A stretch of DNA of 64,000 bases, taken from assembly GCA_034188985.1 (NCBI GenBank), contig JAXHVT010000023.1, forward strand, positions 62,005 to 126,004, read 5' to 3'. Of the stretch, positions 6,662 to 53,138 are shown piece after piece. The stretch's first letter is position 1; each line of letters starts with the position of its first letter. A program made the translations under genes and the position numbers. The notes below the pieces were generated by a model. That model saw only the letters and a program-made list of their open reading frames with translations. It made no database searches and was not told where the DNA came from. This stretch comes from Actinomycetota bacterium (GTDB lineage Bacteria > Actinomycetota > Geothermincolia > Geothermincolales > RBG-13-55-18).

Positions 6662-6693
6662 CGCCTGTAAGGGAGGCTGGAGCTGAACTGAGG

Positions 6694-7854: not shown

Positions 7855-7858
7855 GGGT

Positions 7859-11906: not shown

Positions 11907-11957
11907 TCCGGGGGGATGAGAGAGCGTGGGCTTCCCCGAGGCTGGAGATGGGATTAT

Positions 11958-13310: not shown

Positions 13311-13457
13311 GGCCGGTGACCGAGGTCTTATATAAGGGTTAAAACCAGGCGCTCGACTCCAGGCGGCGGGGTTTGGCAATATGATTCGGGAAAGCGTTGT
13401 TCAGTAACGGATAAGCCGCATTGCCGGCGGGTTTATATACGGTGGTGAAAAGAGGAT

Positions 13458-14948
13458 ATGGTGATGTCCGGTTATCCCAGGTGGCGAAGGGCCAGGTTTG
13501 CCGTCACCATGCTGATCACCCTGGCGGTGATCGTTTTATTCCTGGTATTGATCTTCAAGAACGTGGCCCCCTTTGGGGCGTCGGTCGAATACCATATCGA
13601 TCTGGAAACGGGCGTCGGCGACAAAGCCTTGCCGTCTCCCCTGGAGCCATCGGCCGCCTTGGGGGTGGATGAAAACGGGGTAGCCTACCAGGTACCCCAG
13701 AGCATGATGACGAGCGATTTGTTGACCTTCGAACTCGAGATCCCCTACGAGAATTTCGATACCGCCGAGCTGACTATCAGGTACCAGGGTGATCCCGAGG
13801 AGTTCCTGTTCGGCCTCAGGGGGGATAAGGAGAGCGAGTATCGGTATAAGCCCATACACAACAGGTCCTTGAACGAGTTGGACTGGTTCAATACGGAGGA
13901 TGCCGGTATCACCCTGTGGGAGAGGCAGGAGGATTACGCGAGCGTCGAGGAGTTCATAAGCGATCCCCTGGTGACCTCGAGCGAAGACGGACAGGAGGCT
14001 GGTCGCGCTCTCGTAGCCAGCTATTACTACGAGGTCGAACAGCCTTACCCGGAGATCGACGCTTCCGGAATCGACAGCGGCACGCGGGTCGGATCGTTAC
14101 TGAGGGGATTGCATGTTTTCTACACCGTAGTGGGCGTGGAACCACTCAGCTTCTCCTTCGACAAGAGGGAGCTGAACTGGAAAGAGGGCCCGGATCCCCT
14201 GGGTGTATTCGTTTATTCCGGCTCGGAGCTGATATGGTCCACGAGTATACCCGATGACGGGGATGAATTCGAGAGCGGCGTCATATCGCCCGCCGTGGAG
14301 TTCGACCTCACTCTTCCGGACCTGCCGGAGGGAGTATACAGGATCGAGCTGTTCTGCGACACCGATGTGATAATCGAGAACTTGAGAGCCACTCAAGGAT
14401 ACCTGAGCTTCGTGGACAAGATATTCGTGGCCGATCACGAACTCTACGAAATCGCCCCGAGCAGGCCGCAGACTGTATTCACCAACGCCGAGGCACTGTA
14501 TGTATGGACCTGGCACCCCGAGGCCTATCAGACCATAGGCGTGGACGGGGAAGAGGAGATAGTGATGGAAGAGGCGGGAATCAAGACATTCGCCTTATTG
14601 CCATATGGTGTCAAGGAATTGCGGATGGAGATGGGCGATCTGTCTTTTCTCTCTAAGGAAAGCAGCTTCGCCTTTTCCAGGGCATCGTTTTTCGATCCCT
14701 ATCCCGTGAAGGTAAAGGAATACAGCAGGGAGATCCTATATTCCGATATCGAGTACGTGATCGCGGACTACACTGTCCCGGACGAAGAGGGGGAGTGGCT
14801 GACCAGAAAGTTGACCTTCGATCTGGAGGATATGGAGATCGAGGACAATAAACTCAGATGCACGCTATGGGCACCGAACCTGGCGGTTCTTGATGGAGAG
14901 ATCGTGCTCGGTTCCCTCGATATAAAGCTGCAAAAGGATGGATCGTGA
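13458..14948 (+). CDS. Membrane-anchored acidic extracytoplasmic protein, unknown function
   Basis: 496 aa. A single N-terminal TM (FAVTMLITLAVIVLFLVLIF) is followed by a ~460-aa Asp/Glu-rich domain without recognisable motifs. Good SD (AAGAGGA). Confidence 0.5.
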   Translation: MVMSGYPRWRRARFAVTMLITLAVIVLFLVLIFKNVAPFGASVEYHIDLETGVGDKALPSPLEPSAALGVDENGVAYQVPQSMMTSDLLTFELEIPYENFDTAELTIRYQGDPEEFLFGLRGDKESEYRYKPIHNRSLNELDWFNTEDAGITLWERQEDYASVEEFISDPLVTSSEDGQEAGRALVASYYYEVEQPYPEIDASGIDSGTRVGSLLRGLHVFYTVVGVEPLSFSFDKRELNWKEGPDPLGVFVYSGSELIWSTSIPDDGDEFESGVISPAVEFDLTLPDLPEGVYRIELFCDTDVIIENLRATQGYLSFVDKIFVADHELYEIAPSRPQTVFTNAEALYVWTWHPEAYQTIGVDGEEEIVMEEAGIKTFALLPYGVKELRMEMGDLSFLSKESSFAFSRASFFDPYPVKVKEYSREILYSDIEYVIADYTVPDEEGEWLTRKLTFDLEDMEIEDNKLRCTLWAPNLAVLDGEIVLGSLDIKLQKDGS

Positions 14949-15418
14949 TGGAGACGGGAGCGGACGACATGGCCTCCGGGCCGCGAGACGGCGGCCCGGC
15001 CGGTGGCGGACTCGCATATTATCTGAGGGGATCCCTCAAGTTTCTGCTCTACATAAACTGGAACGTCTTCGCGGCCTCCTTGAACGCGTATATCGTCCTG
15101 ATAGTGCTGGACAAGCTGAAATATGGTTTTGCCAGCTTTTTCTTCAACATGAATATATTGCTGGCCGTAGTCGTGGTCACGGGCTGCGTGGCCGTTTTAA
15201 CTTCGAGCCTTACGAGAGATAGGGGAACCGCGACGACCCCGGCCCTATCCTGGAACAAGGTCTGTATTGCGGTGGTATTTCTGGGCGTAGCCGGGGCGAT
15301 CATGATCTATTTCGGATCCGCCACGACGGGCGCGACCTTGATCGTGTCGCTGGTGGTGGGAGGGGTATTGATATACGTGCTGGCTCTGCTGCTGATTTTG
15401 GACCAGGCTCTATCCTGA
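14948..15418 (+). CDS. Small 4-TM membrane protein (GtrA-like flippase candidate)
   Basis: 156 aa and hydrophobic. Its ATG overlaps the upstream stop (GTGATG). Confidence 0.45.
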   Translation: METGADDMASGPRDGGPAGGGLAYYLRGSLKFLLYINWNVFAASLNAYIVLIVLDKLKYGFASFFFNMNILLAVVVVTGCVAVLTSSLTRDRGTATTPALSWNKVCIAVVFLGVAGAIMIYFGSATTGATLIVSLVVGGVLIYVLALLLILDQALS

Positions 15419-15435
15419 TTTCCGATCCCGCTCGT

Positions 15436-15449
15436 TTTGACGTCCGCAT
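15436..15449. promoter_or_regulatory. 14-mer TTTGACGTCCGCAT, exact copy of the motif at 19974-19987
   Basis: Exact 14-nt identity between two intergenic regions, each upstream of a glycosyltransferase operon. Contains the palindromic core GACGTC. Confidence 0.35.
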
Positions 15450-15683
15450 AAACACGCCGCGTCCTTTCCCGCCCCTTTGCGACGGTCCGGCACTTTGCCG
15501 TCACGAGCATGATGGTGGGGGTGTCTTCACAATCGGCCGCTCGCATGCGGAATCTTGACTGATCCATATCCGAACCGTAGGATGATATTTGGCATAATGG
15601 TAGGGATCAAAATTCAATGGACAGCTGTTTCCAGGCCAGCGTGATAGGGAAACAACAAAGGCTTCGTAGACAAGGGAGATGCG

Positions 15684-16853
15684 ATGAACGTCGTTATTAT
15701 GCAGAATGTTAGTCTGTGCACCCATCTGGCGCTGTCGACGTATCTGAGGAGCATCGCCAAGTACCTGGCGGCACGCGAGGAAGTGAACCTGTACCTGGTG
15801 GTACAGGGCCCGGTCGCGACCCTGCCGGAAGTGCCGCCGCGCAATATTTGCTTTATCGACGCCGATACCTATTCAATCAAGTCCAATTTCAGGTTCTCCT
15901 GGCTGTCGTATAAGGCCCTCAAGGAGCTGAACAGGGAGTCGAGTATAGACCTGATCCATTGCCTGTACCCCAATTCCTCGTTGATGGGAGCGGCCATGTT
16001 CAAGCACTTGTACTCGCCGGACGTGAAGATAATCTACGATGTCCGGAGCCCCTGGATAGAGGCGAGTATCGGCAGGTTGTCCCTGGGCCTGGAATCGATA
16101 CTGTACCGCAAGATCGCCTATGCCGGCGAGGGCTTCCTGGGCCGCTTCGTGGACGGGTACATATTCATCACCAGGGGGCTGAAGGATATCTACGAGGAGA
16201 TGCTGAAGGGAGACCTGGAGCCCTCGATACTCATCCCCTCGGGCGTGGACCTCGACATCTTCGCGCGCATGGATTCGTCATCGGTCAGGGACAGTTACCG
16301 TATCGATGATGACGATATCCTGATAGGATACGTGGGGGTCCTGTCGAGGGAGAGAGAGCTGGATTTCTCCATCAGGGCGCTGCACGAGCTGAGCGATGAA
16401 GATGATAGATATAAATTGATGTTCGTAGGTCGTGGAGACGACCAGGACAGGCTGCGGCATATCTCCAGGGAGCTGGGCATCCAGGAGAAGATCATCTTCA
16501 CCGGGAGCGTGGATTACGAAATGGTTCCACAGTTCATCTCCGCCTTCGATTTCGGCTTATGCCATCTTCCGGACAAGCTGTTTTTCCGCCACAGCTTTCC
16601 CATGAAAGTCCTTGAGTACATCGCCTGCGGAACGCCGGTTCTCGCGTCCAACATAGCGGCACACCGCGATATCGCCGAGGATATCCCCATGAGCTTGTAC
16701 GGCAACGGTAGCCCGTCCGAACTGGCGCGGAAGGTGATGGAACTCAATGGCGACAACGCGGAGGCAGAGGATAACATACACATGTTCGCCTGGCCCAATA
16801 TAGCCAGCGACCTGGTTGAATACTACAGGGATATGACGGGATCCCAAGCCTGA
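15684..16853 (+). CDS. Glycosyltransferase family 4
   Basis: GT-B architecture. ...FPMKVLEYIACGTPVLAS is the E-x7-E motif. Confidence 0.8.
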   Translation: MNVVIMQNVSLCTHLALSTYLRSIAKYLAAREEVNLYLVVQGPVATLPEVPPRNICFIDADTYSIKSNFRFSWLSYKALKELNRESSIDLIHCLYPNSSLMGAAMFKHLYSPDVKIIYDVRSPWIEASIGRLSLGLESILYRKIAYAGEGFLGRFVDGYIFITRGLKDIYEEMLKGDLEPSILIPSGVDLDIFARMDSSSVRDSYRIDDDDILIGYVGVLSRERELDFSIRALHELSDEDDRYKLMFVGRGDDQDRLRHISRELGIQEKIIFTGSVDYEMVPQFISAFDFGLCHLPDKLFFRHSFPMKVLEYIACGTPVLASNIAAHRDIAEDIPMSLYGNGSPSELARKVMELNGDNAEAEDNIHMFAWPNIASDLVEYYRDMTGSQA

Positions 16854-16859
16854 TGCCAA

Positions 16860-18350
16860 ATGGATGCGGTTGAAGGGCTGAGACCCGAGGAAAAACCCGG
16901 ATTACCACCCTTATTGAGGCGGATTCCCGCTGATACATGTATATATGTCGTCCTGGTTCTCGTCCTGGTAGCATTCTCGGTATTCGTCCTCATCGAGGTA
17001 TACAGCGTGGACGGCCTTTTCTCATACGACCCTTACTATCACATGCACCTGTCCGAGTTGATGGAACGGGAAGGGGATCTGGTAACCGAGATCCAGTTCT
17101 ACGAAACCGAAGAGGCTCCTCAATACGTGAGCAGCATGAGATCGCTCACGGCTCTGATACACGAATATACCGGCATTTCGTATTTAAATATCTATAAGGG
17201 GTTCGGTCTTTTCTGTAGGATTTTCACCGCGCTGGCCCTGTTCATCACCGCCGCTTATTTCCTGCGAAGCAAGAAATACGCCCTGATCGCGGTGATCCTC
17301 TTTCTGTCGTCGCCGTACATCATTTACAGGAGCTTCATCACCTTCCCTGAGAACCTGGTTATGCCCTTCCATATCCTCATCTTCTATTCCCTGATAAAGA
17401 GCCTGAGGGAGAAAAAGGCGGACCATATTCTGCCCGTATTGATCGCCGCTTCTCTTTACATCCATTACAGGTCGATTATCGTGCCGGCGGTTCTGGTACT
17501 GGTATTTCTGCTCTTCTGGAGGAGGATAAGATACACCGTCGGTCTGCTGGCGAGCATGGCGATTCTCGCCGCCCCCATACTGGTAAGCGCGGTGGAGCAA
17601 TACGTGGCATATCTGCAGGTGAACGTAGGACCCAGCGCGGCCTGGAAACCTTATACAGTGGCCGATCCCAGCTATACCGTCCCCACGCTCAGTGGTTATC
17701 AATCTCAACTCGGAGCCCTTCTATTGCTCTTCTCCCTGCTGGGCATCCCCTTTCTCATACGCAAGATCAACGCCCAGAAATTCCTGCTGCTGGTATGGCT
17801 GGTATTCACTTTCGCGCTTACCAGGGGAAAGGCGATCGGCCTGTATGTACCCCCGGACAGGATGCTGGCGTATCTCTGCATGCCGGCCGCGCTGACGGCC
17901 GCGGTATTCTTCAAGGAGATAGTCGGACTTGAGGTTCTCACCTCGCGGGCCAGATACGTATTCGTGGCGGCGGTAACGGTGGTCCTGATCTTCTTCTTAT
18001 TCGTAAACCTGCCCTCCGTACACGGCTGGGTCGGCGTGGGAGCGGACGAGCTGAACACGTCCGAATGGCTCAACGACAACGTGTCGCAGGACGCGGTGAT
18101 TCTGCCCTTCGACCTGGACCTTATAACCATCGGTCTCGAGAGCTATAAGAACGTGGACGGCTTGAGCTATGGCGATTGGACGGAGATCTTCAGCCATCCG
18201 CTGGGCGTGAAGGACAGACTGAGGCAGTTGTATCCCGACAAGCGGATATATATCGTGACCGGAAACAAGGTTTTCTCGCTACATGACGCGGAGATCGTCT
18301 TCAGCGAGGGCGATATGAGAGTCTATACTTACTGGGATGAAGGAACATGA
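16860..18350 (+). CDS. GT-C fold polytopic membrane protein with STT3/AglB-like first-loop motif (candidate polyprenol-linked glycan transferase)
   Basis: 496 aa. TM1 is followed by ...YSVDGLFSYDPYYHMHLSELMEREGD... (compare eukaryotic STT3 HEFDPYFNYR). About 11 TM follow, then a ~110-aa C-terminal soluble domain. No WWDYG motif. Confidence 0.55.
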   Translation: MDAVEGLRPEEKPGLPPLLRRIPADTCIYVVLVLVLVAFSVFVLIEVYSVDGLFSYDPYYHMHLSELMEREGDLVTEIQFYETEEAPQYVSSMRSLTALIHEYTGISYLNIYKGFGLFCRIFTALALFITAAYFLRSKKYALIAVILFLSSPYIIYRSFITFPENLVMPFHILIFYSLIKSLREKKADHILPVLIAASLYIHYRSIIVPAVLVLVFLLFWRRIRYTVGLLASMAILAAPILVSAVEQYVAYLQVNVGPSAAWKPYTVADPSYTVPTLSGYQSQLGALLLLFSLLGIPFLIRKINAQKFLLLVWLVFTFALTRGKAIGLYVPPDRMLAYLCMPAALTAAVFFKEIVGLEVLTSRARYVFVAAVTVVLIFFLFVNLPSVHGWVGVGADELNTSEWLNDNVSQDAVILPFDLDLITIGLESYKNVDGLSYGDWTEIFSHPLGVKDRLRQLYPDKRIYIVTGNKVFSLHDAEIVFSEGDMRVYTYWDEGT

Positions 18351-18441
18351 ATACCCGCCAGCCTGTAGATGGGTTCCATACGAGGCGGTCCGGCGTGGAC
18401 GGCTGCATGGAAAGGCGCGTTATTAATCGGGGAGGACAGCC

Positions 18442-19584
18442 TTGAAGGTACTCTTCGTAACGAGTGAGCTGTATCCCTGGAAGACGGGCGGAGTGCAGAA
18501 CGTGGTTTATAACCTCGCCGCCCGGCTGGGGGAAGAGATCGATCTGGAGATGATCTGTATTCACCTCGGCGACGGCGAAGAGGGCCTGGACGGCTACGGC
18601 GACGGAGTCACCTTTCGCTTTATCGAGGACCGGGGAGCCGGCCCCCTCAAGTACCTGTACCGCAACCTGGCCTACATCCGGGCCGACGGTGGCCTGGAGG
18701 ATTTCGATATCGTGCATTTCCATATCCTCCCAGGCGCTAACTGCGCGTTTCTTCCCCGCCATATCAAAAGGCGTTCGGAGGCCAGGCTCCTGCTCTCCGT
18801 GTATGATTGGATTCCCGATGAGCTGGAGTTCTATGATACGGGCGAGAAGGTGAGGCATCTTATGCATTGGGCGGCCGCGAAGCGGGGTCTCAAGAATTTC
18901 GACGGCTATATCGTGAACAGTTCATACGTAAAGGACATTGTCGAATCCTACGGCCTTACCGGGGTGACGATAATGCCCAACGGTATCGATATGGATGAAT
19001 GGAGGACCTCGAGAAGGCTGGCCTTGCGAGGATCGACGAACATCCTGTTCTGGGGACGGCTGTTTCCCAAGAAAGGCGTGGATCACCTTATCAAGGCCTT
19101 TGCCGTGGTGACGCGGCGGTACAGGGACATTCATCTCTATATCGGAGGAGAGGGCCCCCACGAATGTCACTACCGGAAGCTATGCCGCCGTCTAGGCCTG
19201 GAAAACAGGACGACCTTTCTGGGAGGGTTGAGCAAGGATGACCTGAAGGCTTACCTGAATTCATGTGACTTCTGCGTCTTTCCTTCCATCTACGAGGGTT
19301 TCGGGATAGCGGTACTGGAGGCCATGGCGGCCTCCAGACCGGTCATCGTCTCCGAGAGGGGTGGGCAGGTCGATTTCGCCAGGCATGCATTCAACGCCTT
19401 ACTGGTCGACCTCGACAAGCCCGACCAGTTGCCCCACGCGATCCAGAGCCTGGCCACGGATGAGCGCCTGAGGCGGGAATTGGGCGAAAACGCCGCGAGG
19501 ACCGCCACCGAGTATAACTGGCGCGATATCGCCGGGCGTTATGTCGAACTGTACGAGAGCATGTTATCGAAGGGTGGGATATAA
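18442..19584 (+). CDS. Glycosyltransferase family 4
   Basis: TTG start with a GGGGAGGA SD. MKVLFVTSELYPWKTGGVQNVVYNLA...FPSIYEGFGIAVLEAMAASRPVIVS. Confidence 0.8.
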   Translation: MKVLFVTSELYPWKTGGVQNVVYNLAARLGEEIDLEMICIHLGDGEEGLDGYGDGVTFRFIEDRGAGPLKYLYRNLAYIRADGGLEDFDIVHFHILPGANCAFLPRHIKRRSEARLLLSVYDWIPDELEFYDTGEKVRHLMHWAAAKRGLKNFDGYIVNSSYVKDIVESYGLTGVTIMPNGIDMDEWRTSRRLALRGSTNILFWGRLFPKKGVDHLIKAFAVVTRRYRDIHLYIGGEGPHECHYRKLCRRLGLENRTTFLGGLSKDDLKAYLNSCDFCVFPSIYEGFGIAVLEAMAASRPVIVSERGGQVDFARHAFNALLVDLDKPDQLPHAIQSLATDERLRRELGENAARTATEYNWRDIAGRYVELYESMLSKGGI

Positions 19585-19586
19585 AT

Positions 19587-19913
19587 ATGGCGTTTCTCGA
19601 CGGCCTCAGGTCCATAGCGGCACTGCTGTTTCTGATTTTCATTCCGGGCTTCGCCTGGACCTTGGTCTTTTTTAAAGAGAGGGAGGTGGACATTCTGGAG
19701 AGGTTCGTCTATTCCATCGCCCTCTCCATCGCCCTGATGGCCATAGCCCTGTTCTTCGCGAACCGGCTCCTGGGCGTGAGGATCAACGTTCCCAACTCCT
19801 TTGCAATCGTCGTGGTGCTGACCGCGATACCGTTCATCCATAGATTTTTAAGCAAGCGGGGACACTACGACAGATTGCGCCTGAGGAGGTCGCGGAACGG
19901 CTTGAAGACCTGA
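19587..19913 (+). CDS. Small 3-TM membrane protein, unknown
   Basis: 108 aa and hydrophobic. Its ATG sits 2 nt after the upstream stop. Confidence 0.45.
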   Translation: MAFLDGLRSIAALLFLIFIPGFAWTLVFFKEREVDILERFVYSIALSIALMAIALFFANRLLGVRINVPNSFAIVVVLTAIPFIHRFLSKRGHYDRLRLRRSRNGLKT

Positions 19914-19973
19914 GGTATTCATGCCACGATAGCTTTGCGTCGACTCCGTTATTCTCGCGGGAATCAGGTTATC

Positions 19974-20002
19974 TTTGACGTCCGCATTTGGGAATCTATA
20001 AA
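19974..20002 (+). promoter_or_regulatory. Promoter TTGACG-16nt-TATAAA containing the shared 14-mer TTTGACGTCCGCAT
   Basis: The -35 TTGACG (19975-19980) and -10 TATAAA (19997-20002) lie upstream of the GtrB-like gene. Confidence 0.45.
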
Positions 20003-20058
20003 ATGGGTGGCGAATTTATGAGATATCTAGCGGAATCAGTTGATTAGGGGGTATTTTC

Positions 20059-20919
20059 TTGAAGGTAAGCCTGGTGATACCGGCCTACAACGAGGAAAAG
20101 GCCATCCCCGGCGTCATAAGGGAAGCCGTGGAGGTCTTGGAGGCCAGCCCGTACGAATGGGAGATAGTAGTGGTGGATGACGGATCCAGTGATGGCACCG
20201 CGGATATCGCGGTCTCCTTCCCCGAGGTGAACCTGGTGAGACACCCGTACAACATGGGAGGCGGCAGGGCTCGAAACTCCGGGATCGACAAGGCCACGGG
20301 GGACGTGGTCGTGATAACGGATGGAGATGGCACCTATCCCATGCAGGACATCCCCAGACTGGTGGAGGAGCTGGAAGACTGCGACATGGTCGTCGGGGCC
20401 CGCACCAGGGAGGCGGGGACGATGAAAGCGTTGCGGATCCCCGCCAAGTTCGTTATCCGCAAGCTGGCGGAGTTCATAAGTGGTTCCAAGATTCCGGACC
20501 TGAACTCCGGCATGAGAGCCATGCGCAAGGAGATCATGCTTCCATATTTACACATGCTGCCGCCCGGCCATTCCTGGGTGAGCACCATAACCCTGATTCT
20601 CTTGAACAGCGGTCGCAGCGTCAAATACGTGCCTATCGCCTACTATCCCCGCAAGGGCAAATCGACCTTTCATCCCATAAGGGATACTGGAAGCTATCTC
20701 ATGACCATATTCCGTACAATAACCTGGTTCAGCCCGCTGAAGATATTCCTGCCGCTGGGCCTGCTGCTGCTTCTGGGGGGCTTCGCAAAGCTGATAGCTG
20801 ATTTCGTGCGATATAACTGGTCCGTTACCCCGAGCACGGTGATCCTGCTGTTGGGAGGCTTGCAGATACTCGTTTTGGGCTTGATAGCCGATCTGATCGT
20901 AAAAAGGAGTGGGCCATGA
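20059..20919 (+). CDS. GT2 polyprenyl-phosphate hexose synthase (GtrB/DPM1/ArnC-like) with C-terminal TM helices
   Basis: TTG start. MKVSLVIPAYNEEKAIPGVIRE...VVVDDGSSDGT...VITDGDGTYP plus two C-terminal TM segments is the typical Und-P/Dol-P sugar synthase layout. Confidence 0.8.
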   Translation: MKVSLVIPAYNEEKAIPGVIREAVEVLEASPYEWEIVVVDDGSSDGTADIAVSFPEVNLVRHPYNMGGGRARNSGIDKATGDVVVITDGDGTYPMQDIPRLVEELEDCDMVVGARTREAGTMKALRIPAKFVIRKLAEFISGSKIPDLNSGMRAMRKEIMLPYLHMLPPGHSWVSTITLILLNSGRSVKYVPIAYYPRKGKSTFHPIRDTGSYLMTIFRTITWFSPLKIFLPLGLLLLLGGFAKLIADFVRYNWSVTPSTVILLLGGLQILVLGLIADLIVKRSGP

Positions 20920-21890
20920 GCGATAAAGTACTCATTACCGGAGCGGACGGTTTCGTGGGAAGGCATCTGGCGGCGTATCTTGCCGACGAGGTGGGGACGG
21001 AGGTGTTGGGCCTCGACCTGAAACCGGCCAGGTTCCCCGAGCCCTGGGACAGGTGTGGCTACGGGGAGTGCGACGTTCTGGATCGCGACAAGGTCTTCTC
21101 CTACGTGCATGGATTCAAGCCGGATTACGTGTTCCACCTGGCCGCCCAGAGCTCCGTACGCCTGTCCTGGGAGGAACCCCAGCTCACATACAATATCGCC
21201 CTTACCGGGCAGGCCAACATCTTCGACGCGGTAAGGGATACGGGCAGGGATGCGGTTCTGCACGTAGCCTGCTCGGCCGAGGAATACGGCCGGGTGAGCG
21301 AGGACGATCTCCCCATAACCGAGCGGCAGCCCTTGAGGCCGGCGAGCCCCTATGCCCTGAGCAAGGTGATGCAGTATTACCATGCCGTTTTCAACCACCA
21401 GGCTTACGGTACCCGGGTCGTTATCACCCGAGCCTTCAACCAGACCGGCCCGGGGCAGGCCCCCGAGTTCGTGGTCTCCGACTTCGCCAGGCAGATAGCC
21501 GAGGCGGAGGCGGGCGACAGGACCCCGGTAATAAGGGTGGGCAACCTGGAGGCCAGAAGGGACTTCTCCGACGTGCGCGACCTGGTGGGCGCCTACTGGC
21601 TCCTGGTCCAGAAGGGGAAGCCGGGGGAGGTGTACAACGTATGCTCCGGCTGCGATTATTCCATAAGGGAGATCCTGGACATGCTGCTGTCCCACAGCAA
21701 GGTTCCCATCAGGGTGGAGGTGGACCCCACGCGTATGCGCAAGGCGGATATCCCCGTTCTGAAGGGGGACAACACCAAGATGAGGGAGCTGGTGGACTGG
21801 GCCCCGGTGTGCGCCCTGGACAGGACCCTGGAGGATGTACTGGAATGGTGGCGGGAGGAGATACGGTCGAGGAAGGAAGGCGGCAAATAG
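20916..21890 (+). CDS. NAD(P)-dependent extended SDR, GDP-4-keto-6-deoxy-D-mannose reductase (Rmd)-like
   Basis: ITGADGFVGRHL and a YxxxK motif (YALSK). Homologous to the gmd-like gene downstream (shared FN.TGP....FV...F.RQ.A block). ATGA overlap with the upstream stop. Confidence 0.65.
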   Translation: MSDKVLITGADGFVGRHLAAYLADEVGTEVLGLDLKPARFPEPWDRCGYGECDVLDRDKVFSYVHGFKPDYVFHLAAQSSVRLSWEEPQLTYNIALTGQANIFDAVRDTGRDAVLHVACSAEEYGRVSEDDLPITERQPLRPASPYALSKVMQYYHAVFNHQAYGTRVVITRAFNQTGPGQAPEFVVSDFARQIAEAEAGDRTPVIRVGNLEARRDFSDVRDLVGAYWLLVQKGKPGEVYNVCSGCDYSIREILDMLLSHSKVPIRVEVDPTRMRKADIPVLKGDNTKMRELVDWAPVCALDRTLEDVLEWWREEIRSRKEGGK

Positions 21891-21994
21891 CCCGCGGGGC
21901 ACGGCGCGTCCGGACCGGAGGCCCGCCGCCTGTAGACCGGGATGGAGAGCACCTACGACGGCGGAGAGGCGGAGACTGATACGGAGGTCTATAA

Positions 21995-23107
21995 ATGCAG
22001 GCTGTGATACTGGTAGGGGGGCAGGGAACGCGGCTGAGGCCGCTCACTCTGACCGTCCCCAAACCCATGCTGCCCCTGATGAACAGACCCTTTCTCGAGT
22101 TCCAGGTCCAGCTGTGCCTGCGGCACGGCATCTCCGACATCATTATGAGCACGGCCTACCTGCCAGAGGTCTTCGAGGAGCATTTCGGGGACGGCAGCGG
22201 CCTGGGGGCGAAGATGACCTACGTCACCGAGGACGAGCCCCTGGATACGTGCGGCGCGGTCAAGAACGTGGAGGAGTATATCAAGGGCCCTTTCCTGGTG
22301 TTCAACGGTGATATCCTGACCGATCTCGACCTGACCAACCTTATCGCCTATCACCGCGAGAAGGGCTCGAAAGCCACCATCTCGCTGACCAGGGTGGAGG
22401 ATCCCACCGCCTACGGACTGGTGCCCCTGGACCGGTCCGGGCGTATAAATGAGTTTCTGGAGAAGCCGAGCTGGGAACAGGTGGTCACCGACCTGATCAA
22501 CGCCGGGACCTACGTGATGGAACCCGAGCTCCTGGACAGAGTGCCGCGAGGTGAGCGCTACTCCTTCGAGCGGCAGCTTTTTCCCCAGCTGCTGGAGGAC
22601 GGGGTGCCCATGTACGGCTTCGCAACCGATGCCTACTGGATGGACATCGGCACGCCGGCCAAGTACCTGCAGGCGCATTACGACATACTGGGCCGGATGA
22701 TCCCCTTCGATTTCGCGGGAGACGAGATAAAGCCCTCGGTCTGGGCGGAGGAGGGGGCGGAGATATCCCCCGAGGCCTCCGTTTTCGGCCCCACCATAAT
22801 CGGCTCCGGATGCCGTATAGCTCCCCATGCCATCGTATCCAGCCGATGTGTATTGGGTCCCGATTGCGAGCTGGGTGAGGGCGTGCACGCGGAGGGGGTG
22901 GTGATGCACTCCGGCTGCAAGGTGGGAGAGGAGAGCGTATTGAGCCGCTGCGTCATCTCCAGCGACGTGGAGATCGAGGAGAAGGTACACGTCGCCGATC
23001 AGTCCGTGCTGGGCGGGAGAGTAGTGGTGGAGAGGGAAAACGACCTGAAATGCGGCATCAGGGTATGGCCGGAGGCCCATATCCCGCCCTCCACATTGCA
23101 CTTCTAG
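21995..23107 (+). CDS. manC: Mannose-1-phosphate guanylyltransferase (NDP-sugar pyrophosphorylase with LbH C-domain)
   Basis: MQAVILVGGQGTRLRPLT...PKPMLPL... N-terminal NTP-transferase signature, plus C-terminal hexapeptide repeats. Confidence 0.8.
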   Translation: MQAVILVGGQGTRLRPLTLTVPKPMLPLMNRPFLEFQVQLCLRHGISDIIMSTAYLPEVFEEHFGDGSGLGAKMTYVTEDEPLDTCGAVKNVEEYIKGPFLVFNGDILTDLDLTNLIAYHREKGSKATISLTRVEDPTAYGLVPLDRSGRINEFLEKPSWEQVVTDLINAGTYVMEPELLDRVPRGERYSFERQLFPQLLEDGVPMYGFATDAYWMDIGTPAKYLQAHYDILGRMIPFDFAGDEIKPSVWAEEGAEISPEASVFGPTIIGSGCRIAPHAIVSSRCVLGPDCELGEGVHAEGVVMHSGCKVGEESVLSRCVISSDVEIEEKVHVADQSVLGGRVVVERENDLKCGIRVWPEAHIPPSTLHF

Positions 23108-23196
23108 CGGGCTCTGGAAAAAGAGGCGGTTTACAGTCATAATATTACGGATGATGTAAGAGACTGCGTATTGATACGCCGACAAAGGAGGAAGGC

Positions 23197-24150
23197 TTGC
23201 GGATTCTTATAACGGGAATAACCGGCTTTGTGGGCAGCCATCTGGCGGAATATACTTTTAGCAAGGACGGCGTAGAGGTTTACGGGACCGTCCGCTGGAG
23301 ATCCCGTATGGAGAACGTCGAGCATATCCTGGACCGGATTAATCTCGTCGACTGCGACCTGCGCGATGCCGCGGCGGTCAGGAACACTCTGGACGAGGTG
23401 AGGCCGGATTTTATCTTTCACCTGGCGGCGCAGAGCTTCGTGCCCACCTCCTGGAAGGCGCCGGAGGAGACCCTGACCACCAACATCATCTCCGAGCTGC
23501 ACCTGCTGGAGGCCATGCGCGAGTCGAAGCTGGATTGCCGCATACAGGTGGCAGGCTCCAGCGAGGAATACGGCCTGGTACGCGAGGAAGAAGCCCCGAT
23601 TACCGAGGACAACCCGCTGCGGCCTTTGTCCCCCTACGCGGTGAGCAAGGTGGCCCAGGACTTGCTGGCTTACCAGTACCATAAGAGTTACGGCCTCTTT
23701 ACCGTGCGCACCCGCGCCTTCAACCACACCGGCCCCAGGCGTGGACACGTCTTCGTCACCAGCAACTTCACCCGCCAGGTGGCCATGATAGAGCGGGGAA
23801 AGAAAGAACCGGTTATCGAGGTGGGCAACCTGGAGGCCAGGAGGGACTTCACGGACGTCAGGGACATCGTGCGCGCCTACTGGCTCAGCCTGGAGAAGGG
23901 GGAGCCGGGGGAGGTATATAATATCGGCTCCGGCAAGGCCATCACCATCCGGGAGCTCCTGGACCTCATCCTCTCCATGACCGACGTGGAGATAGAGGTG
24001 AGACAGGACCCCGCGCGCATGCGACCCTCGGACGTCATGCTCCTGCTCACCGACTACGGCAAGTTCAACAGGGCCACGGGATGGAAGCCCGAGATACCCC
24101 TGGATAAAACGGTCGGGGACCTCCTCGACTACTGGCGCGAGAGGGTCTGA
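23197..24150 (+). CDS. gmd: GDP-mannose 4,6-dehydratase (short form)
   Basis: TTG start. ITGITGFVGSHL...VRWRSRMENVEHI...FNHTGPRRGHVFVTSNFTRQVA matches the Gmd block [22 protein letters not shown]. Confidence 0.7.
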   Translation: MRILITGITGFVGSHLAEYTFSKDGVEVYGTVRWRSRMENVEHILDRINLVDCDLRDAAAVRNTLDEVRPDFIFHLAAQSFVPTSWKAPEETLTTNIISELHLLEAMRESKLDCRIQVAGSSEEYGLVREEEAPITEDNPLRPLSPYAVSKVAQDLLAYQYHKSYGLFTVRTRAFNHTGPRRGHVFVTSNFTRQVAMIERGKKEPVIEVGNLEARRDFTDVRDIVRAYWLSLEKGEPGEVYNIGSGKAITIRELLDLILSMTDVEIEVRQDPARMRPSDVMLLLTDYGKFNRATGWKPEIPLDKTVGDLLDYWRERV

Positions 24151-30724: not shown

Positions 30725-30769
30725 AAAACATCGGAAGATGGGGTCAGGCACTGACATCGGACATTTTCG
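30725..30769. repeat. Dispersed palindromic repeat family, copy A
   Basis: aaaacatcggaagatggggtcaggcactgacatcggacattttcg shares the GTCAGAAGACGGGGTCA...CATCGGACATTTTCG core with copies at 41.8, 50.3 and 59.7 kb. Confidence 0.5.
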
Positions 30770-30974
30770 TCCGAGCCCTCGTGACTGACCGGCAGCCCCC
30801 ACACGATAAGGCCTCGGTTATAAGCGATAGATCCATATGGGCAACCCGCCTCGGGGCGGGAGCGTTTGGGTCACTTCGTCGGCGCGGGCGCCTCCTCGCG
30901 ATGACGGTCACGTGATTTGAGACCCCATCCGGTGCTTTTCGGATAGAGTTATCCCCACTGGCACCGAGAATCGG

Positions 30975-31003
30975 TTGACTTTAATAGTTAACTATTATAT
31001 GTT
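30975..31003 (+). promoter_or_regulatory. Sigma70-like promoter TTGACT-15/16nt-TATATG with 10-bp palindrome TAGTTAACTA in the spacer
   Basis: AT-rich island in otherwise GC-rich DNA, immediately upstream of comF. The perfect palindrome at 30985-30994 is a candidate operator. Confidence 0.4.
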
Positions 31004-31028
31004 ATAGAACATGATTAACTATGGCAAT

Positions 31029-31733
31029 ATGGCGGAACTGTTCTTCCCCACGCGCTGCGCCGGCTGCGGAAGGTATTCCGGCAGGCCGCTTTGCCTGGAG
31101 TGCACCGCCTCGCTTCCCCTGATAAGAGGCCCGGTATGCAGCCTCTGCGGCAAGCCCACGCTCTATGACGTGGAGGACTGCCTCGAATGCCGGGGCAGGA
31201 TAAGATACCTGGATGCGACCGTGGCCCTGGCCGTCTACGAAGAGCCCTTGAGGTCGATGATCCACAAGTTGAAATATCGCAATGGGTGGAGGCTGGCGAT
31301 GCCCCTCGGGGCCATGGCCGCCGTGCGGCTGGCTCCAATGCTCGGCGGGGACGAGCCTGTCGTTACCTACGTGCCCATGTACCGCCGTAATCGCAAGGCA
31401 CGCGGCTACGATCATGCGGAGGAGCTGGCCCGAGGCGTGGCAAGGGCTCTAGGCTTGAAGGTTGAAACGCTCCTGGGCAGGACGCGCCCCTGCAAAGCCC
31501 AGAGCGGTCTGACCCATGAAGACAGGAGAGTGAACGTACTGGGGGCCTTCCAGGAGCGAGCCACGGCGGCACATGTGAGGGAGGCCGTGCTGGTGGACGA
31601 CGTACTGACCACCGGTTATACACTGCGCGAGTGCGCTGGTGCGTTGAAGAAAGCGGGAGTGGAAAGGGTGATCGCCTGCGTTCTGGCCAGGGATCTGCTG
31701 GGCGAACCCACCCGCCGTCATGGTACGGGATAA
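31029..31733 (+). CDS. comF: ComF-family phosphoribosyltransferase (competence protein ComFC-like)
   Basis: N-terminal Cys-rich zinc-finger-like CAGCG...CLEC...CSLCG, then a PRTase fold (VLVDDVLTTGYTL). Confidence 0.7.
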   Translation: MAELFFPTRCAGCGRYSGRPLCLECTASLPLIRGPVCSLCGKPTLYDVEDCLECRGRIRYLDATVALAVYEEPLRSMIHKLKYRNGWRLAMPLGAMAAVRLAPMLGGDEPVVTYVPMYRRNRKARGYDHAEELARGVARALGLKVETLLGRTRPCKAQSGLTHEDRRVNVLGAFQERATAAHVREAVLVDDVLTTGYTLRECAGALKKAGVERVIACVLARDLLGEPTRRHGTG

Positions 31734-31814
31734 ATTGCAGCGCCTTTTTTTCGCGTAAATAGAACCCCCCGGGATGACGATAAAAATCATAGAGCCTAAG
31801 GAGGCAAGTGAGGC

Positions 31815-32069
31815 ATGCGAATATCGGACAGAGAGATAGAGAACTCGCTGCGGTTTTTATCCCAGGAGCCCTTCGCATCGGGCGGAAAGCCGCACATTGC
31901 GCAGGATATAGAGCAGATGGTGCTGGGGCAGCTGAGGGAGATGCCGGATGTCCGGATGGACAGGGTGCTATCACTACGCACCGCCATCCAGGAGAAACGC
32001 TATTCGGTGTCCAGCGAGGACGTGGCCAAGAAGATACTTGGCCGCTGCGTTGCCGATCATATCCGTTGA
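31815..32069 (+). CDS. flgM: FlgM-family anti-sigma-28 factor (orphan)
   Basis: 84 aa. C-terminus RVLSLRTAIQEKRYSVSSEDVAKKIL resembles the FlgM sigma-28-binding helix. Strong SD (AAGGAGG). No flagellar genes in the window. Confidence 0.45.
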   Translation: MRISDREIENSLRFLSQEPFASGGKPHIAQDIEQMVLGQLREMPDVRMDRVLSLRTAIQEKRYSVSSEDVAKKILGRCVADHIR

Positions 32070-32138
32070 CGTGCAAGAGATGGTGCTCAGAAGAAAGGCG
32101 GCCCCTGCGGGGGCCGCCTTTGATATCGGTAGGGTCCG

Positions 32139-33330
32139 TAGCTGAATGGCCTCGATAAGGTTGGCTCCCTCCTGTACGCCGCCGCACAGGGTAGCCATAT
32201 CGTACCTGGCGCCTTTCTCCTTGAGGATGCGGGCCAGGGAGCAGGTGAGCATGGGCCCGGAACAGGCCAGGGGGTGGCCTATGGCGATAGTGCCCCCTTG
32301 ACGTTGACCTTCTCCGGGCCCAGTCCCAGCTCCCTGATGCCGTACAGGGTGATCACGGCGAAGGTCTCGTTTATCTCTCAGTACTCGATATCGCCAATAT
32401 CCATCGCAGCTTTCTACAGAGTCATCCTGGAGGCGGGGAACGGACCCACGCCCATTAAACCGGGATCGACGCCCGTCCATTCCATGGATACGACCCTCGC
32501 CAGGGGCTTGAGTCCCAGTGAATCGGCCTTGTTCTCGTTCATAAGGAGCACCGCGGTGGCCCCGGCGTTCAGGGATGAGGAGTTTCCGGCCGTTATCTGA
32601 CCATCGGGCTTGAAGGCCGGCTTGAGCTCGGCCAGCTTCTCCATGGTGGTGCTGGCGCGCATGGAGAGATCGGTGTCGAAGCGCTGCACGCTTCCGTCCT
32701 CCTGCTCCACCTCGACTGGAAGGATCTCGCCCGCGAAATAGCCCTCCTTTACCGCCCTTGCGGCTCTCTGGTGGCTGAACAGGGACCACTCGTCCATCTC
32801 CTCCCTGGTGATGCCAGACTGGCCATGGAGCTTCTCGGCGGTCAGCCCCATGCTCATAGCGGTCTGGAAATCGAGCTGCTTCAGGCTCTCGTCCTGGAAG
32901 AACCTGGGGTTTATAGCCATGAGGTCGGTGCTCCCCGGCGGATCCAGGGGAACGTGAGTCATGTGCTCCATGCCGCAGACCAGAACTAGGTCGGAACAAC
33001 CGAGAATTTTATCCATGGAACCCTGGTGGAGGGCGGACACCCCGGAGATACATACCCGGTCCATTCCCTGTGCCGGGGTGGTCACGGGCAGGCCGGCCAG
33101 GAAGGCAATGGTTCGACCGCCCATGAGGTAGTACGCATCTGCAGGGCGCAGCCCACCAGGAGGTCGTCGATATCCTCCGGGTTCACCTGGTTGCGGGACA
33201 GTATCTCCTTCACCAACAGAGACAGCGCATCGTCCATCCTCAACTTGTTGAAGGCGTCTCTCTCCGGTTGACGGGACCTGGATCTGGAGTAGGGGGCTCT
33301 GAGCATGTCCACGATAACCGCTTCGGTCAT
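32139..33330 (-). pseudogene. Acetyl-CoA acetyltransferase (thiolase) pseudogene with multiple lesions
   Basis: Thiolase homology is spread over three frames: N-terminus 33330-33130, middle 33124-32417, C-terminal fragments 32376-32139 (contains GHPLACSG). There is a frameshift near 33125-33135. In-frame TAG at 32414-32416 (GPFPASRMTL*KA). In-frame TGA at 32378-32380 (DIEY*EINETF). A frameshift sits in the C5 run at 32294-32298 (KGG/TIAIGHP). The native stop after ...IEAIQL is absent. Confidence 0.6.
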
Positions 33331-34219
33331 CTTTTCCTACTTTGGTTACGTTTCCCAGAATATATTAATCGTAGGTTAATACTATTGTGGTTCCGTATGT
33401 CTTAACGGAACTTAGGCCCGGGCATAGCATATATAGATGCCGTAATGGCTCTCGCGCGACCCAAGGCCCGCTTATGAGCCGAGAGGTTCCGGGATCCGAG
33501 ACCTTGCGGCTCTCCTTGAACGGTTGGGCTTGCCACCTGGGACCCGTTCGGATCATTCCAGCCTTATCCTGGGCATGAAGAGGGAGAGGGCGAAGGCCAG
33601 ACCAGCCACCACCACCGCCGTAAACACATGTGGCTTCAACAGGGTCGGTGCCGGCCCTTCAGACTCGGGCCGAAGAGACTTATAATAATGGTGGAAGGTT
33701 TCGGCCCGGGTCTGTGGTTGAAAGTCGATGCTAGCCGCAGGCGAAACGACCCACGTAAGCCAACTTTTTGTTGGTGAGCATGGTGCGGCTTAGGGGTAAG
33801 ACCTGCCCGGCTCAGATCCGGAGAAGCGCAATAGTGGCGGGCATTCCGGTAACCCTTGAAGGGCGGATTCCCGCTGCGAGCCGCTCAGCAGGCGAGTGTG
33901 GGGTCAAAGACCAGGTCAGCCGGGTTCGAAACCTTTTAATAAAAACGATGCTCCCCGCGGTTATACGCGGAGGCCTGGTGGGGGCCCCGCCGGAAGGGAA
34001 ACGACGGACGGGGACCCTGCGATGAGACGGCGTATCGAAAAGCGAGTGGGATTCGAGGGATTGTGTGGAGGCCCGGAAACGCGGGGTTCATATGGTGGTG
34101 GACTTTCTTGGCACAGGAATAAACCTGTGGTAGGCTTATGCGAGTCAAAAACGAGATAAACCGGGGCAGCCCCGGGTATTCGATGAGCTTATATAGCTTA
34201 TTTATAGGGATCGAGGTCG

Positions 34220-34254
34220 GCCCATACCGCACCTTGTAAGGGTATGGGCTTTTG
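34220..34254 (+). terminator. Intrinsic-terminator-like hairpin (9-bp stem GCCCATACC/GGTATGGGC, 12-nt loop) followed by TTTT
   Basis: Seen directly. It lies 26 nt upstream of the hpf start, at the end of a 0.9-kb ORF-free region. Confidence 0.4.
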
Positions 34255-34279
34255 CACGGAAGAGAAGGGAGCAAAGGTT

Positions 34280-34834
34280 ATGCAGATCATCGTGAAAGGC
34301 AAGCACCTTGAGATGACGGATGCCCTGCGGAGCTATGCGGAGGAAAAGGTGGGCAAGGTAGAGAAGTACTTCGACCGCATACTCAAGACGGAGATCGAGA
34401 TGAGTGTGGAGCGTAACCCCAAGATCTCGGATAACCAGGTAGTGGAGGTTACCATCTTTACCTCCGGACCGGTAATCAGGGCAAAGGAAAGCGCTTCGGA
34501 TATGTACCAGGCTATAGACCTGGTCACCAGCAAGTTGGAGCGCCAGGCCAGGAAGGCGAAGAAGAAGATGATAGACAGGTCTCATCATGCTAAGAATCCC
34601 TTCAAGGAGCCATCATCCCTGCACCTGGAGGAGGAGGAGGAGGAAGAGGAAGAAGCCTTGATCGTAAAGACCAAGAGCTTCCCGCTCAAGCCCATGATAC
34701 CCGAGGAAGCCTGCCTGCAGATGGACCTGGTGGGACACGATTTCTTCGTCTTTATAAATGCCGATACGGAGGAGACTAACGTGGTTTATAGAAGAAAAGA
34801 TGGGAACTACGGCTTGATAGAGCCAGGAGGTTGA
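34280..34834 (+). CDS. hpf: Ribosome hibernation promoting factor (long HPF)
   Basis: MQIIVKGKHLEMTDALRSYAEEKVGKVEKYFDRI... is the RaiA/HPF N-domain. C-terminal extension carries a poly-Glu linker. Confidence 0.85.
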   Translation: MQIIVKGKHLEMTDALRSYAEEKVGKVEKYFDRILKTEIEMSVERNPKISDNQVVEVTIFTSGPVIRAKESASDMYQAIDLVTSKLERQARKAKKKMIDRSHHAKNPFKEPSSLHLEEEEEEEEEALIVKTKSFPLKPMIPEEACLQMDLVGHDFFVFINADTEETNVVYRRKDGNYGLIEPGG

Positions 34835-40698: not shown

Positions 40699-41803
40699 AT
40701 GCTTGGCGATCATGTAAGCGAACTGGAGGGGTTGGCCGGCAGGCTCGTGAAGATAAAGGAGTATCTTTGACATAGAAGGTAAAAGGAGCCGGGTGGCCGA
40801 GCTCGAGAAACAGAGCGCCAGGCCCGATCTCTGGGATGACCAGGAGAATGCCCGGCGCCTGTTGGGGGAGCTCTCCAATACCAAGGAACTGGTGGATAGC
40901 TGGGAGAGGCTATCGGGGGACAGCGGGGAGTTGGGCGAGTTGATCCAGTTGGCAAGGGAGGAGGATGACTCCAGCCTCAGCGAAGAGATAATCCAGGGCG
41001 TGGAAAGGCTGCGACGTGAGGTGAATCGGCTGGAGGAGGAGAGTCTCCTGGGCGGAGAGCTTGACTCCCACGACGCCATCGTCAGCATCCATCCTGGAGC
41101 GGGTGGGCTGGAATCCCAGGACTGGGCTGAGATCATGCTGCGGATGTACCTGCGTTGGGCGGAGTCGAGGGGGTTCAAGGTGGATCTCAACGACGTGCAG
41201 CCCGGGGATGGAGGCGGGATTAAGAGTGCCACCTTTACCATTCATGGCCACAACGCATACGGTCTTTTCATGTCTGAGAAAGGCGTTCACCGCCTGGTGC
41301 GCATCTCCCCCTTCGACGCCTCGCATCGCCGCCACACCTCCTTCGCCTCACTGGACGTGATCCCCATGCTGCAGGAGACGGGCGAGATCGAAATAGACCC
41401 CAAGGATCTCCGCGTGGAGACCTACAGGTCGAGCGGGGCCGGGGGGCAGCACGTTAACGTCACCGATTCGGCCGTGCGCATCACCCACGAACCCACGGGC
41501 ATTGTCGTTTCCTGCCAGAACGAGCGTTCTCAGATATCCAATCGTCAGACGGCCATGCGCATATTGGAGGCACGGCTGGCTGAGCGGGTGCGGCAGGAGC
41601 GGGAAAAGAGGATAGAGAAGCTGCGGGGCGAGAGGAAGGATATCGGCTTCGGGAGCCAGATACGCTCCTACGTACTCCATCCCTATCGCATGGCCAAGGA
41701 CCACCGAACCGATCTGGAGATAGGCAACGCGGACGCCGTGCTGGACGGCGACCTGGACGACCTCGTCGACTCCTACCTGCGCTGGAAGGCCACCCCCGAC
41801 TAA
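40699..41803 (+). CDS. prfB: Peptide chain release factor 2, programmed +1 frameshift at CTT TGA C (40765-40771)
   Basis: Frame 0 runs ATG 40699...AAGGAG TAT CTT TGA (40768-40770). The +1 frame continues GAC ATA GAA GGT... into the RF2 body. GGQ appears as SSGAGGQHVNVTDSAVRITH. ORF track only reports 40793-41803. Confidence 0.9.
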
Positions 41804-50562: not shown

Positions 50563-51812
50563 TATTTCACATCGGGTTGCATCAGTAAGCGGGGACTATT
50601 GAAAGGGCATTCACCGGGCAGATCGAAACACATACACCGCAACGTTCGCAGAGTTCGAGCTCTATTTCCGGCTTGTCCCGGTTCACGGTAACCGCTCCGT
50701 AGATACAGGCGGAGCATTTACCGCAACCGTCGCACTTGTCCTAGCTCAAAACCAGGCGAAGGGTATCGGGCTCGGCGGCTGAGGCCATGAAACGGGAGAG
50801 GAACTCATCGAGGTTATATATTTGGGGCAAGGCGAGTCCGATCATATCCGGAACCCGCTCGTAGCCTTTTCTATTTATGAAGCGCCCGACGCCTACGATC
50901 GTATCCGTAAGAGCCTTGTAGCCCTTGTATTGGACCGCGCTCTCGAGGGCGGCCACAGTCGCCCCGAACATCAGGCGTTCGACGGCGTCCTTCCAGGTCC
51001 AGATGCCACGCTGCTGATGATGTGCAACTCGGTTCCATTGGCCGAGAGGTAGGCGACGTAATTTCCGAGACCTCTCAACCAGCGTCCGTAGCCGAAAGGG
51101 ACGTTGATGGGAGGGCTAGCCGTCTGCATATCCAGAGAAGTGATCCGGAAATCGCTGTAGACGTGTAGCGCTCCCGCGCCCCGGTCCCACATCTCGGCGA
51201 TATAGCGGTTCCAGTATACGTCGTGGTTAAACCCGAGTTTCAACCGGAAGGGAATCCCGAGGTGACCGTCGAGCGCCTCTAACGCCAGAGGAACGGCACT
51301 CTCGAGGAAGGTGGCGGTGTCACTGGGGGACAGGGACATGCCGCAGGTCCCTCGATGGCATCCGAGCCGGCTTCCTCGAGCTGCGTTATCATCACCCTCA
51401 GGGCTACCTCCGCTGGCGGCGATATCTCCTCGCAGGGGGACAGGCCGCTCCAGGGGTTGACCATGAATACGCCTCCTACGATCCGCGCGTCCTCACTCTC
51501 GGCCGGATCCTTGGAAGCGCTTACGCATTCGACGGCTTTCTCCAGGGGCAGAAGCCCCGAGTAATAGTTCATGAGAGTGCAGCGGTCGCCTATACCATAG
51601 TAAAACCAGTTGTCCGGACGGGGCGGAAGCTGCGCCAGTGGATCCAGACAGACGTGTTTTAGAACCAGCGCGCCTACGCCGGCTTCGATACAGCACTTGA
51701 TGGTATACGGTGCCGAGGCGATGGGACCCGCCGCATCTGCTATCGAATTCTTGAAACGCATCCCCGAGAACTCGACTTCCATTTCAGGCATTGTGTCGTA
51801 GCTCCACTTCAC
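50563..51812 (-). pseudogene. PreA/dihydroorotate-dehydrogenase-like flavoprotein with C-terminal 2x[4Fe-4S] ferredoxin domain, fragmented
   Basis: Four consecutive minus-strand pieces. 51812-51279 is a DHOD-like TIM-barrel N-terminus (VEFSGMRFKNSIADAAGPIA...). 51339-50974 and 50971-50744 are in other frames. The ferredoxin segment DKCDGCGKCSAC...CERCGVCVSICP (50738-50563) follows an in-frame TAG at 50741-50743. The pieces sum to ~420 aa, typical for PreA. Confidence 0.45.
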
Positions 51813-52374: not shown

Positions 52375-52497
52375 CACGTTTTCAATGTCCAATGGATAAT
52401 CGATATCCTACCAATATTTTAGCACCTGAAGTCCGAGGCTGTATCGCACACGACCATGGCGGGCACGATCGCCGGGCATACCCCGGCGCTAAGTTCT

Positions 52498-52974: not shown

Positions 52975-53138
52975 GATTCCTCCACGCAAGGGTCTTTGTG
53001 ACTATGATAACCCAGCCCGTGGTGGCTTGTAAGATACCCGGGCGGATTCCACATGCTGTTGGACGGGATCGCCCCATCCACGATACTCCTTCGAGGCGAG
53101 TCGGCCCTTTCGAGATCCCTGCTGCGTAACAGGCCGGC

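Follow-up and report, generated by a model that had tools for sequence, protein, structure and literature searches.

Pseudogene surveys have been made of Mycobacterium leprae, Sodalis and Salmonella Typhi, and bacterial unitary pseudogenes are said to decay under a deletional bias. We found a decayed thiolase gene in a 64,000-nucleotide stretch of DNA from an Actinomycetota bacterium (assembly GCA_034188985.1, contig JAXHVT010000023.1, positions 62,005 to 126,004). We refer to this whole stretch as the window. The decayed copy shares the two-domain layout of thiolases (PF00108 plus PF02803; NF005033, TIGR01930; E. coli FadA-like) and is colinear with them over ~398 codons. It still recognisably carries the thiolase motifs RVCISG (nucleophilic Cys), NE(A/T)F, GHP and LCGG, and its closest intact relatives are 83-64% identical. 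Unlike intact thiolases, the window copy has two frameshifts, two nonsense codons, no stop codon, and a glycine loop that is shortened and mutated. We conclude with high confidence that this locus is a genuine, moderately aged unitary pseudogene that has gone unrecognised in public annotation. GenBank annotates the two larger thiolase fragments as separate hypothetical proteins and not as a pseudogene.

We searched 5.8 billion proteins for homologues and recovered three intact 398-aa orthologues, P0001, P0002 and P0003, that are 83%, 76% and 73% identical to the window product. In addition, an intact syntenic copy is present in two related contigs, L097 and L098 (described below). Comparison with an intact orthologous gene, which the preliminary description of this DNA had proposed as a check, was therefore possible both for the protein and for the locus. 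There were ~100 further relatives, mostly 55-65% identical and mostly from uncultivated Actinomycetota (Candidatus Anoxymicrobiaceae, Geothermincola). Among GTDB species genomes the best match was 65% identical (Anoxymicrobiaceae and Geothermincola metagenome-assembled genomes [MAGs]), and none was syntenic. A literature search on the clade gave nothing relevant to the thiolase gene, and a search for sequencing run SRR24907504, to which we return below, gave no papers.

Thiolase similarity covers the full length of the gene on the minus strand (33330 to ~32142) and is spread over three frames, as the preliminary description had reported. Frame 0 contains MTEAVIVDML...LVGCALQM(R). Frame 2 contains YYLMGGRT...GPFPASRMTL*KAAMDIGDIEY*EINETFAV...VNVK. 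Frame 1 contains GGTIAIGHPLACSGP...ATLCGGVQEGANLIEAI and is then open past the ancestral end without a stop. We stitched the three frames together and compared the translation to family models. Residues 24-266 matched Pfam Thiolase_N (PF00108; 6.1e-60, 203 bits, cut-off 26.4) and residues 274-392 matched Thiolase_C (PF02803; 1.1e-32, 113 bits, cut-off 27). Both are full-length domain matches above the curated thresholds. The closest NCBIfam model was NF005033 (PRK06445, acetyl-CoA C-acetyltransferase), and TIGR01930 and FadA models also matched. The stitched product scored 482 bits with NF005033, below the cut-off of 511, and intact P0001 scored 573 bits. We took as the mark of a functional thiolase an uninterrupted open reading frame (ORF) of ~395-400 codons that scores >511 bits with NF005033, and the window sequence contains no such ORF. 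The E-values were 1e-168 for tblastn of P0001 against the window locus and 4.5e-216 for the protein database search, which rules out chance similarity. The nucleotide alignment to the locus encoding P0001 (L002) is colinear end to end and ends at the ancestral stop. Judged by its sequence, the gene of origin is a stand-alone 398-codon thiolase, an acetyl-CoA C-acetyl/acyltransferase of the PRK06445/FadA-like branch.

We mapped the lesions by nucleotide and codon alignment against four intact orthologues (P0001, P0002, P0003 and L097). We regard as a pseudogene a sequence with full-length homology to a functional gene and with disabling lesions that are missing from intact orthologues, and here there are six such lesions (Table 1). 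Lesion 1 shifts the frame after codon 66, at a site that reads QMRENYLMGG in 4/4 orthologues. The first ORF then ends at a stop at 33084-33082, giving 82 aa. This is the frameshift that had been placed near 33125-33135, and it proved to be a net 4-nt deletion. The in-frame TAG and TGA (lesions 2 and 3) are present where they had been described, and all four orthologues have GAG/GAT and TGG at these positions. The Trp column that is now TGA is invariant in 118 homologues. Lesion 4, the second frameshift, had been assigned to a C5/G5 homopolymer at 32294-32298; the frameshift is real, but these coordinates are one base off. Lesion 5 was missing from the earlier account. Next to the second catalytic Cys, a (GGC)n run has lost one Gly codon, and together with Gly>Val and Gly>Glu this has turned the conserved loop C-G-G-G-G-Q-G into C-G-G-V-Q-E-G, in columns that are invariant in the 118 homologues. 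The reported loss of the stop codon (lesion 6) also held: CAG stands where the orthologues have TAG/TAA, and the frame is open to 31974. The read-through tail that results crosses a probable terminator hairpin and is antisense to the 3' end of flgM. All three indels are deletions (net -4, -1 and -3 nt).

We found that the window copy has also accumulated replacements at positions that are otherwise conserved. Of 83 alignment columns that are invariant in all 118 full-length homologues, the window copy differs at 16. In contrast, when each homologue was left out in turn, the homologues differed at a mean of 0.14 columns and a maximum of 3. We also counted changes on the branches leading to the window copy and to its sister, P0001, using P0002 and P0003 as outgroups. 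These are parsimony counts rather than a likelihood codon model, and they show direction rather than exact rates. The window branch carried 42 unique amino-acid changes, compared to 8 for P0001 (binomial p = 1e-6). The ratio of replacement to silent changes was 42:9 on the window branch and 8:34 on the P0001 branch (Fisher p = 6e-10). The 66 nucleotide changes on the window branch fell on codon positions 1, 2 and 3 in the proportion 26:14:26. Hypermutation was considered as a source of these changes and rejected: the spectrum (G>A 14, C>T 11, G>T 9, A>G 8, and others) has no single dominant class.

The pairwise ratio of replacement to synonymous rates (omega) between the window copy and P0001 was 0.11 at a synonymous divergence (dS) of 0.77. 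Purifying selection thus acted on the gene through most of the period after the two copies diverged, and the decay is recent relative to the divergence. A three-point distance decomposition gave rough estimates of omega for the two branches, ~0.3 for the window copy and ~0.04 for P0001, with approximately one quarter of the terminal branch being neutral. Over that time a few dozen neutral substitutions could accumulate, and two nonsense codons are then about as many as expected.

The lesions are also present in a second assembly. Logan contig SRR24907504_156886, which was assembled independently, is 100.000% identical to positions 30740..34555 of the window (3816 nt, 0 mismatches, 0 gaps). Because the identity extends over the whole 3816 nt, the Logan contig carries all six lesions. 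Together with the intact orthologues and the relaxed constraint, this supports the earlier proposal of pseudogenisation rather than assembly error.

Two explanations would leave an intact gene in the organism or its population. In the first, the pseudogene allele is real in only part of the population, and co-occurring strains keep an intact copy that is hidden by the consensus. A MAG consensus does collapse strains. However, among the 5.8 billion proteins we found no intact protein that was more than 83% identical, and the sole 100% matches were the fragments themselves. In addition, so many neutral changes have built up that the lineage must be a long-lived one and not a fresh mutant. We consider this explanation improbable; the small doubt that is left about the verdict concerns allele frequency and possible strain heterogeneity. 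In the second, the gene is intact and its frameshifts and stops are artefacts of the consensus, for instance from miscalled homopolymers or poor polishing. In favour of this, the source is a MAG, and one of the two frameshifts is in a 5-base homopolymer. In contrast, two of the lesions are nonsense substitutions, and lesion 1 is a net 4-nt change outside any homopolymer. The Logan assembly, a de Bruijn-graph assembly made from raw reads, matches every base. Consensus errors would not yield at least 11 missense changes at invariant residues, or a replacement to silent ratio of 42:9. We tested ~50 other ORFs in the window and they were without such breaks: every one recognised by Pfam matched its family over essentially the full profile length, including SecA, RF2, AdoHcyase, AOR and many glycosyltransferases. 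Finally, the one other broken gene in the window (below) also has a nonsense substitution that is also reproduced in the Logan data. Assembly error is very unlikely to be the cause of the lesions.

A functional gene that is expressed by recoding, with programmed frameshifts and with TGA and TAG read through or reassigned to give an active thiolase, is less credible still. The TGA is exactly at the position of a Trp codon, as in codes in which TGA is Trp, and there is one true programmed frameshift in the window. This is the canonical +1 site of prfB (RF2) on the plus strand at 40699..40771 (ATG at 40699; TAT CTT TGA C, with the TGA at 40768-40770). An AGGAG-like element precedes the site in the short ORF, and the +1 frame continues into the PCRF/RF-1 ORF at 40793..41803 (+). 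However, the autoregulatory site of prfB works only if RF2 reads TGA as a stop, and so TGA is a true stop here. Both TGA and TAG terminate neighbouring genes in the window. Based on these stops and the prfB site, the code is the standard one, an altered code such as TGA=Trp is rejected, and the TGA and TAG in the thiolase are true nonsense codons. Recoding would also require four independent events plus a new stop, and none of these features is found in any orthologue, all of which have plain sense codons and no shifts. It would not account for the mutated invariant glycine loop and ~11 other mutated invariant residues, or for a stitched product that is below the NF005033 family cut-off.

There is next to no chance that a fragment has acquired a new role. 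The 236-aa Thiolase_N ORF keeps the nucleophilic Cys motif RVCISG, and the read-through frame extends, on the opposite strand, into the 3' end of flgM. However, the ORF encodes half of a thiolase fold, without the catalytic His, Cys and Asn of the C-terminal part. Transcripts should end at the strong hairpin (32094-32121) before they reach flgM, and we found no second genome with these fragments that would show them to be conserved.

Several observations weigh against a gene that is simply dead, or limit how firmly its history can be read. In the stitched alignment all four catalytic residues are still encoded: Cys (RVCISG), Asn (NETF), His (GHP) and Cys (LCGG). The silent counts are distorted: the G+C content of P0001 at third codon positions is 0.72 rather than 0.81-0.86, so that its silent changes are overcounted, and the dS values to the outgroups are close to saturation. 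The Logan contig may come from the MAG's own reads; its match then rules out errors introduced by the assembler or by polishing, but a systematic read error or the allele of a minority strain could be present in both. P0001, the closest sequence at 83% identity, is in a different context, with a nitroreductase gene upstream, which makes the history of the locus harder to trace. Last, tblastn found no second thiolase within the 64-kb window; a copy elsewhere in the genome might compensate.

Gene order at the locus supports the pseudogene reading. In L097 and L098 (JGI 3300068092 and 3300068091; HPF 84% identical), an intact thiolase gene is in the same place and orientation, and its protein is 96% identical to P0003. 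In nucleotide sequence the L097 thiolase gene and the window copy share 76.9% identity, compared to 75-78% for the flanking genes. This matching divergence fits vertical inheritance of the thiolase gene together with its neighbours. In both L097 and the window the thiolase is on the opposite strand from, and divergent from, raiA RNA-hpf-HD-HD-secA-prfB. The other flank differs: it is a polysaccharide deacetylase gene in L097 and comF-flgM in the window. A thiolase gene thus stood here, divergent from raiA RNA-hpf-HD-HD-secA-prfB, in an ancestor common to the window and at least one relative with an intact gene.

Two other relatives lack the gene at this site. In L086 the order is NTP-transferase-comF-flgM-raiA RNA-hpf, with only 146 nt between flgM and the raiA homology and without a thiolase gene. 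In L096 a DUF5719 gene is found upstream of hpf, and a thiolase gene is likewise missing there. Members of the clade therefore differ at this site, with the thiolase gene intact, decaying or absent, the pattern expected of a dispensable gene. Based on the two relatives without the gene and on a second metabolic gene in the window that is decaying in a similar way, the thiolase gene looks dispensable in the clade. The locus encoding P0001 (L002) was also considered as a syntenic counterpart of the window and was rejected because the flanking genes differ. Using the L002 nitroreductase gene in tblastn, we found no nitroreductase remnants in the 900-nt gap upstream of the pseudogene. The homologue from Candidatus Anoxymicrobium japonicum stands alone among dnaX-ybaB-recR and ppx-eno and is not in a beta-oxidation operon; context therefore assigns no pathway or thiolase reaction.

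Most probably, selection on the thiolase gene was lost in the window lineage, and neutral changes then built up: three deletions, two nonsense mutations, the change that removed the stop codon, and some dozen replacements at otherwise invariant residues, including those in the glycine loop next to the catalytic Cys. If so, no full-length enzyme could be made, and translation from the original ATG would end after 82 codons. The thiolase step (cleavage or condensation of acetoacetyl-CoA or 3-ketoacyl-CoA) is then not supplied from this locus. As currently annotated, automated pathway calls could miss the locus or wrongly credit the organism with a thiolase. The practical value of the finding is in annotation and metabolic reconstruction; it opens no new mechanism or question.

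Table 1. Coordinates of the thiolase pseudogene, its lesions and the other features discussed (window positions unless another contig is named)
Feature	Position	Strand	Details
Thiolase pseudogene body	32142..33330	minus	ancestral ATG 33330-33328 to ancestral stop position 32144-32142
N-terminal ORF, 82 aa	33082..33330	minus	GenBank 'hypothetical protein' SWK76_05070 (MDY6794641.1)
Longest surviving ORF, 236 aa, Thiolase_N fragment	32414..33124	minus	GenBank 'hypothetical protein' SWK76_05065 (MDY6794640.1)
Lesion 1, net 4-nt deletion	33131-33134 (junction)	minus	orthologous CG GGAGAAC TAC to CG TAC TAC
Lesion 2, nonsense TAG	32414-32416	minus	GAG/GAT (Glu/Asp, ALEKAG) in orthologues
Lesion 3, nonsense TGA	32378-32380	minus	TGG (Trp, DYWEINEAF) in orthologues
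Lesion 4, 1-nt deletion in G run (C5 on plus strand)	32293-32297	minus	AAG GGC GGG GCC to AAG GGG GCA C
Lesion 5, in-frame 3-nt deletion, Gly>Val, Gly>Glu	32169-32183	minus	TGC GGx GGC GGG GGC CAG GGG to TGC GGC GGC GTA CAG GAG
Lesion 6, stop-codon loss	32142-32144	minus	orthologous ATG TAG/TAA to ATT CAG (Met codon now ATT)
Read-through tail	31974..32141	minus	from stop loss; ORF 31974..32999; without thiolase similarity
flgM	31815..32069	plus	convergent with thiolase pseudogene
Hairpin, 12-bp, G+C-rich	32094..32121		followed by UUUCUUCU on minus strand; fold -29.2 kcal/mol, z = -4.4, 0/200 shuffles as good
Promoter-like site	33658..33686		beside raiA RNA
raiA RNA motif	33701..33928	plus	Rfam RF03072, 169.9 bits, full length; upstream of hpf/raiA gene
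hpf	34244..34834	plus	
Second pseudogene, PreA/dihydroorotate-dehydrogenase-like, C-terminal 4Fe-4S domain	50588..51791	minus	homology of stitched sequence
Intact thiolase of L097	Ga0618269_0000026, 4272..5504		398 codons from MADAVIV...; related uncultivated actinobacterium

The neighbours of the pseudogene are, in order, a Ser/Thr kinase gene (-), AdoHcyase, an MtnA-like gene, NTP-transferase, comF, flgM, the thiolase pseudogene (-), raiA RNA and hpf, followed by HD-GYP, HD, secA, prfB, a PHP-domain gene, a split transketolase, ftsE, ftsX, ctpA and AOR. The hairpin between the pseudogene and flgM, with its U tract, is ~20 nt beyond the ancestral stop and marks the original 3' end. It is likely, from its predicted fold, to be a bidirectional terminator common to the thiolase gene and the convergent flgM; a simple terminator scan did not flag it. 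On the other side, the raiA RNA fills part of a 913-nt gap that had appeared empty and that adjoins the pseudogene. Its sequence is 86-89% identical in L086, L096, L097 and L099, and no other stretch of the region is as well conserved. The spacer from the start codon of the pseudogene to the raiA RNA (33331..33680) is ~350 nt, compared to ~140 nt in L097. The extra ~210 nt contain no recognised feature; positions 33331-33400 are A+T-rich. In L096 (ENA ERZ25039461 contig_17003, 221-kb), secA was called as four fragments of 87, 207, 372 and 93 aa at 9803..12407, which suggests that this assembly is error-prone and possibly from long reads. Unlike in L096, secA in the window is a single 886-aa ORF.

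We found a second decayed gene in the window, 17 kb from the thiolase pseudogene. It consists of three abutting minus-strand ORFs between 50741 and 51812. The frame shifts twice, near 51350 and near 51008, and there is also an in-frame TAG (50741-50743). Its intact homologues have 404-405 aa and share 54% identity with it. Pfam gave no match to the separate fragments, and only a homology search with the stitched sequence revealed the gene. The pieces are in GenBank as hypothetical proteins SWK76_05135, SWK76_05140 and SWK76_05145, and they are reproduced exactly in a Logan contig. Together with the absence of the thiolase gene from two relatives, this second decayed gene suggests that a little-known anaerobic lineage of Actinomycetota is still losing accessory metabolic genes.

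Both broken genes are on the minus strand. About 50 of the ~58 protein genes in the window are on the plus strand, which has positive GC skew. That is, 2 of ~8 minus-strand genes are broken compared to 0 of ~50 plus-strand genes (Fisher p = 0.017, n=2). It is conceivable, though we doubt it, that in this lineage accessory genes oriented head-on to replication are preferentially mutated and purged through conflict between replication and transcription, the direction of replication here being deduced from gene orientation and GC skew. If this were true, the thiolase pseudogene would show one stage in a strand-dependent streamlining of the whole genome.

Other features of the window were noted in passing. 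A transfer-messenger RNA gene (RF00023, 169.9 bits) at 52027..52375 (-) adjoins smpB at 52522..52959 (-), and the plus-strand ORF at 52456..53001 is a shadow of smpB. Positions 1..24150 hold a large cell-envelope polysaccharide cluster with at least 8 glycosyltransferases (GT2, GT4, GT87). The cluster also includes a UDP-GlcNAc 2-epimerase, two GDP-mannose-dehydratase/epimerase-type genes and an NTP-transferase, and several long ORFs without any Pfam match (9588..11906, 13458..14948 and 16860..18350).

The thiolase pseudogene closely resembles known bacterial unitary pseudogenes. As in those, its lesions are a mix of small deletions and nonsense mutations, omega rises towards 1 on the terminal branch, and the gene is missing from some relatives. 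There is nothing unusual in its structure or its mode of decay, and we found no feature that sets it apart from the known cases; the density of broken genes here, 2 in ~58, is modest.

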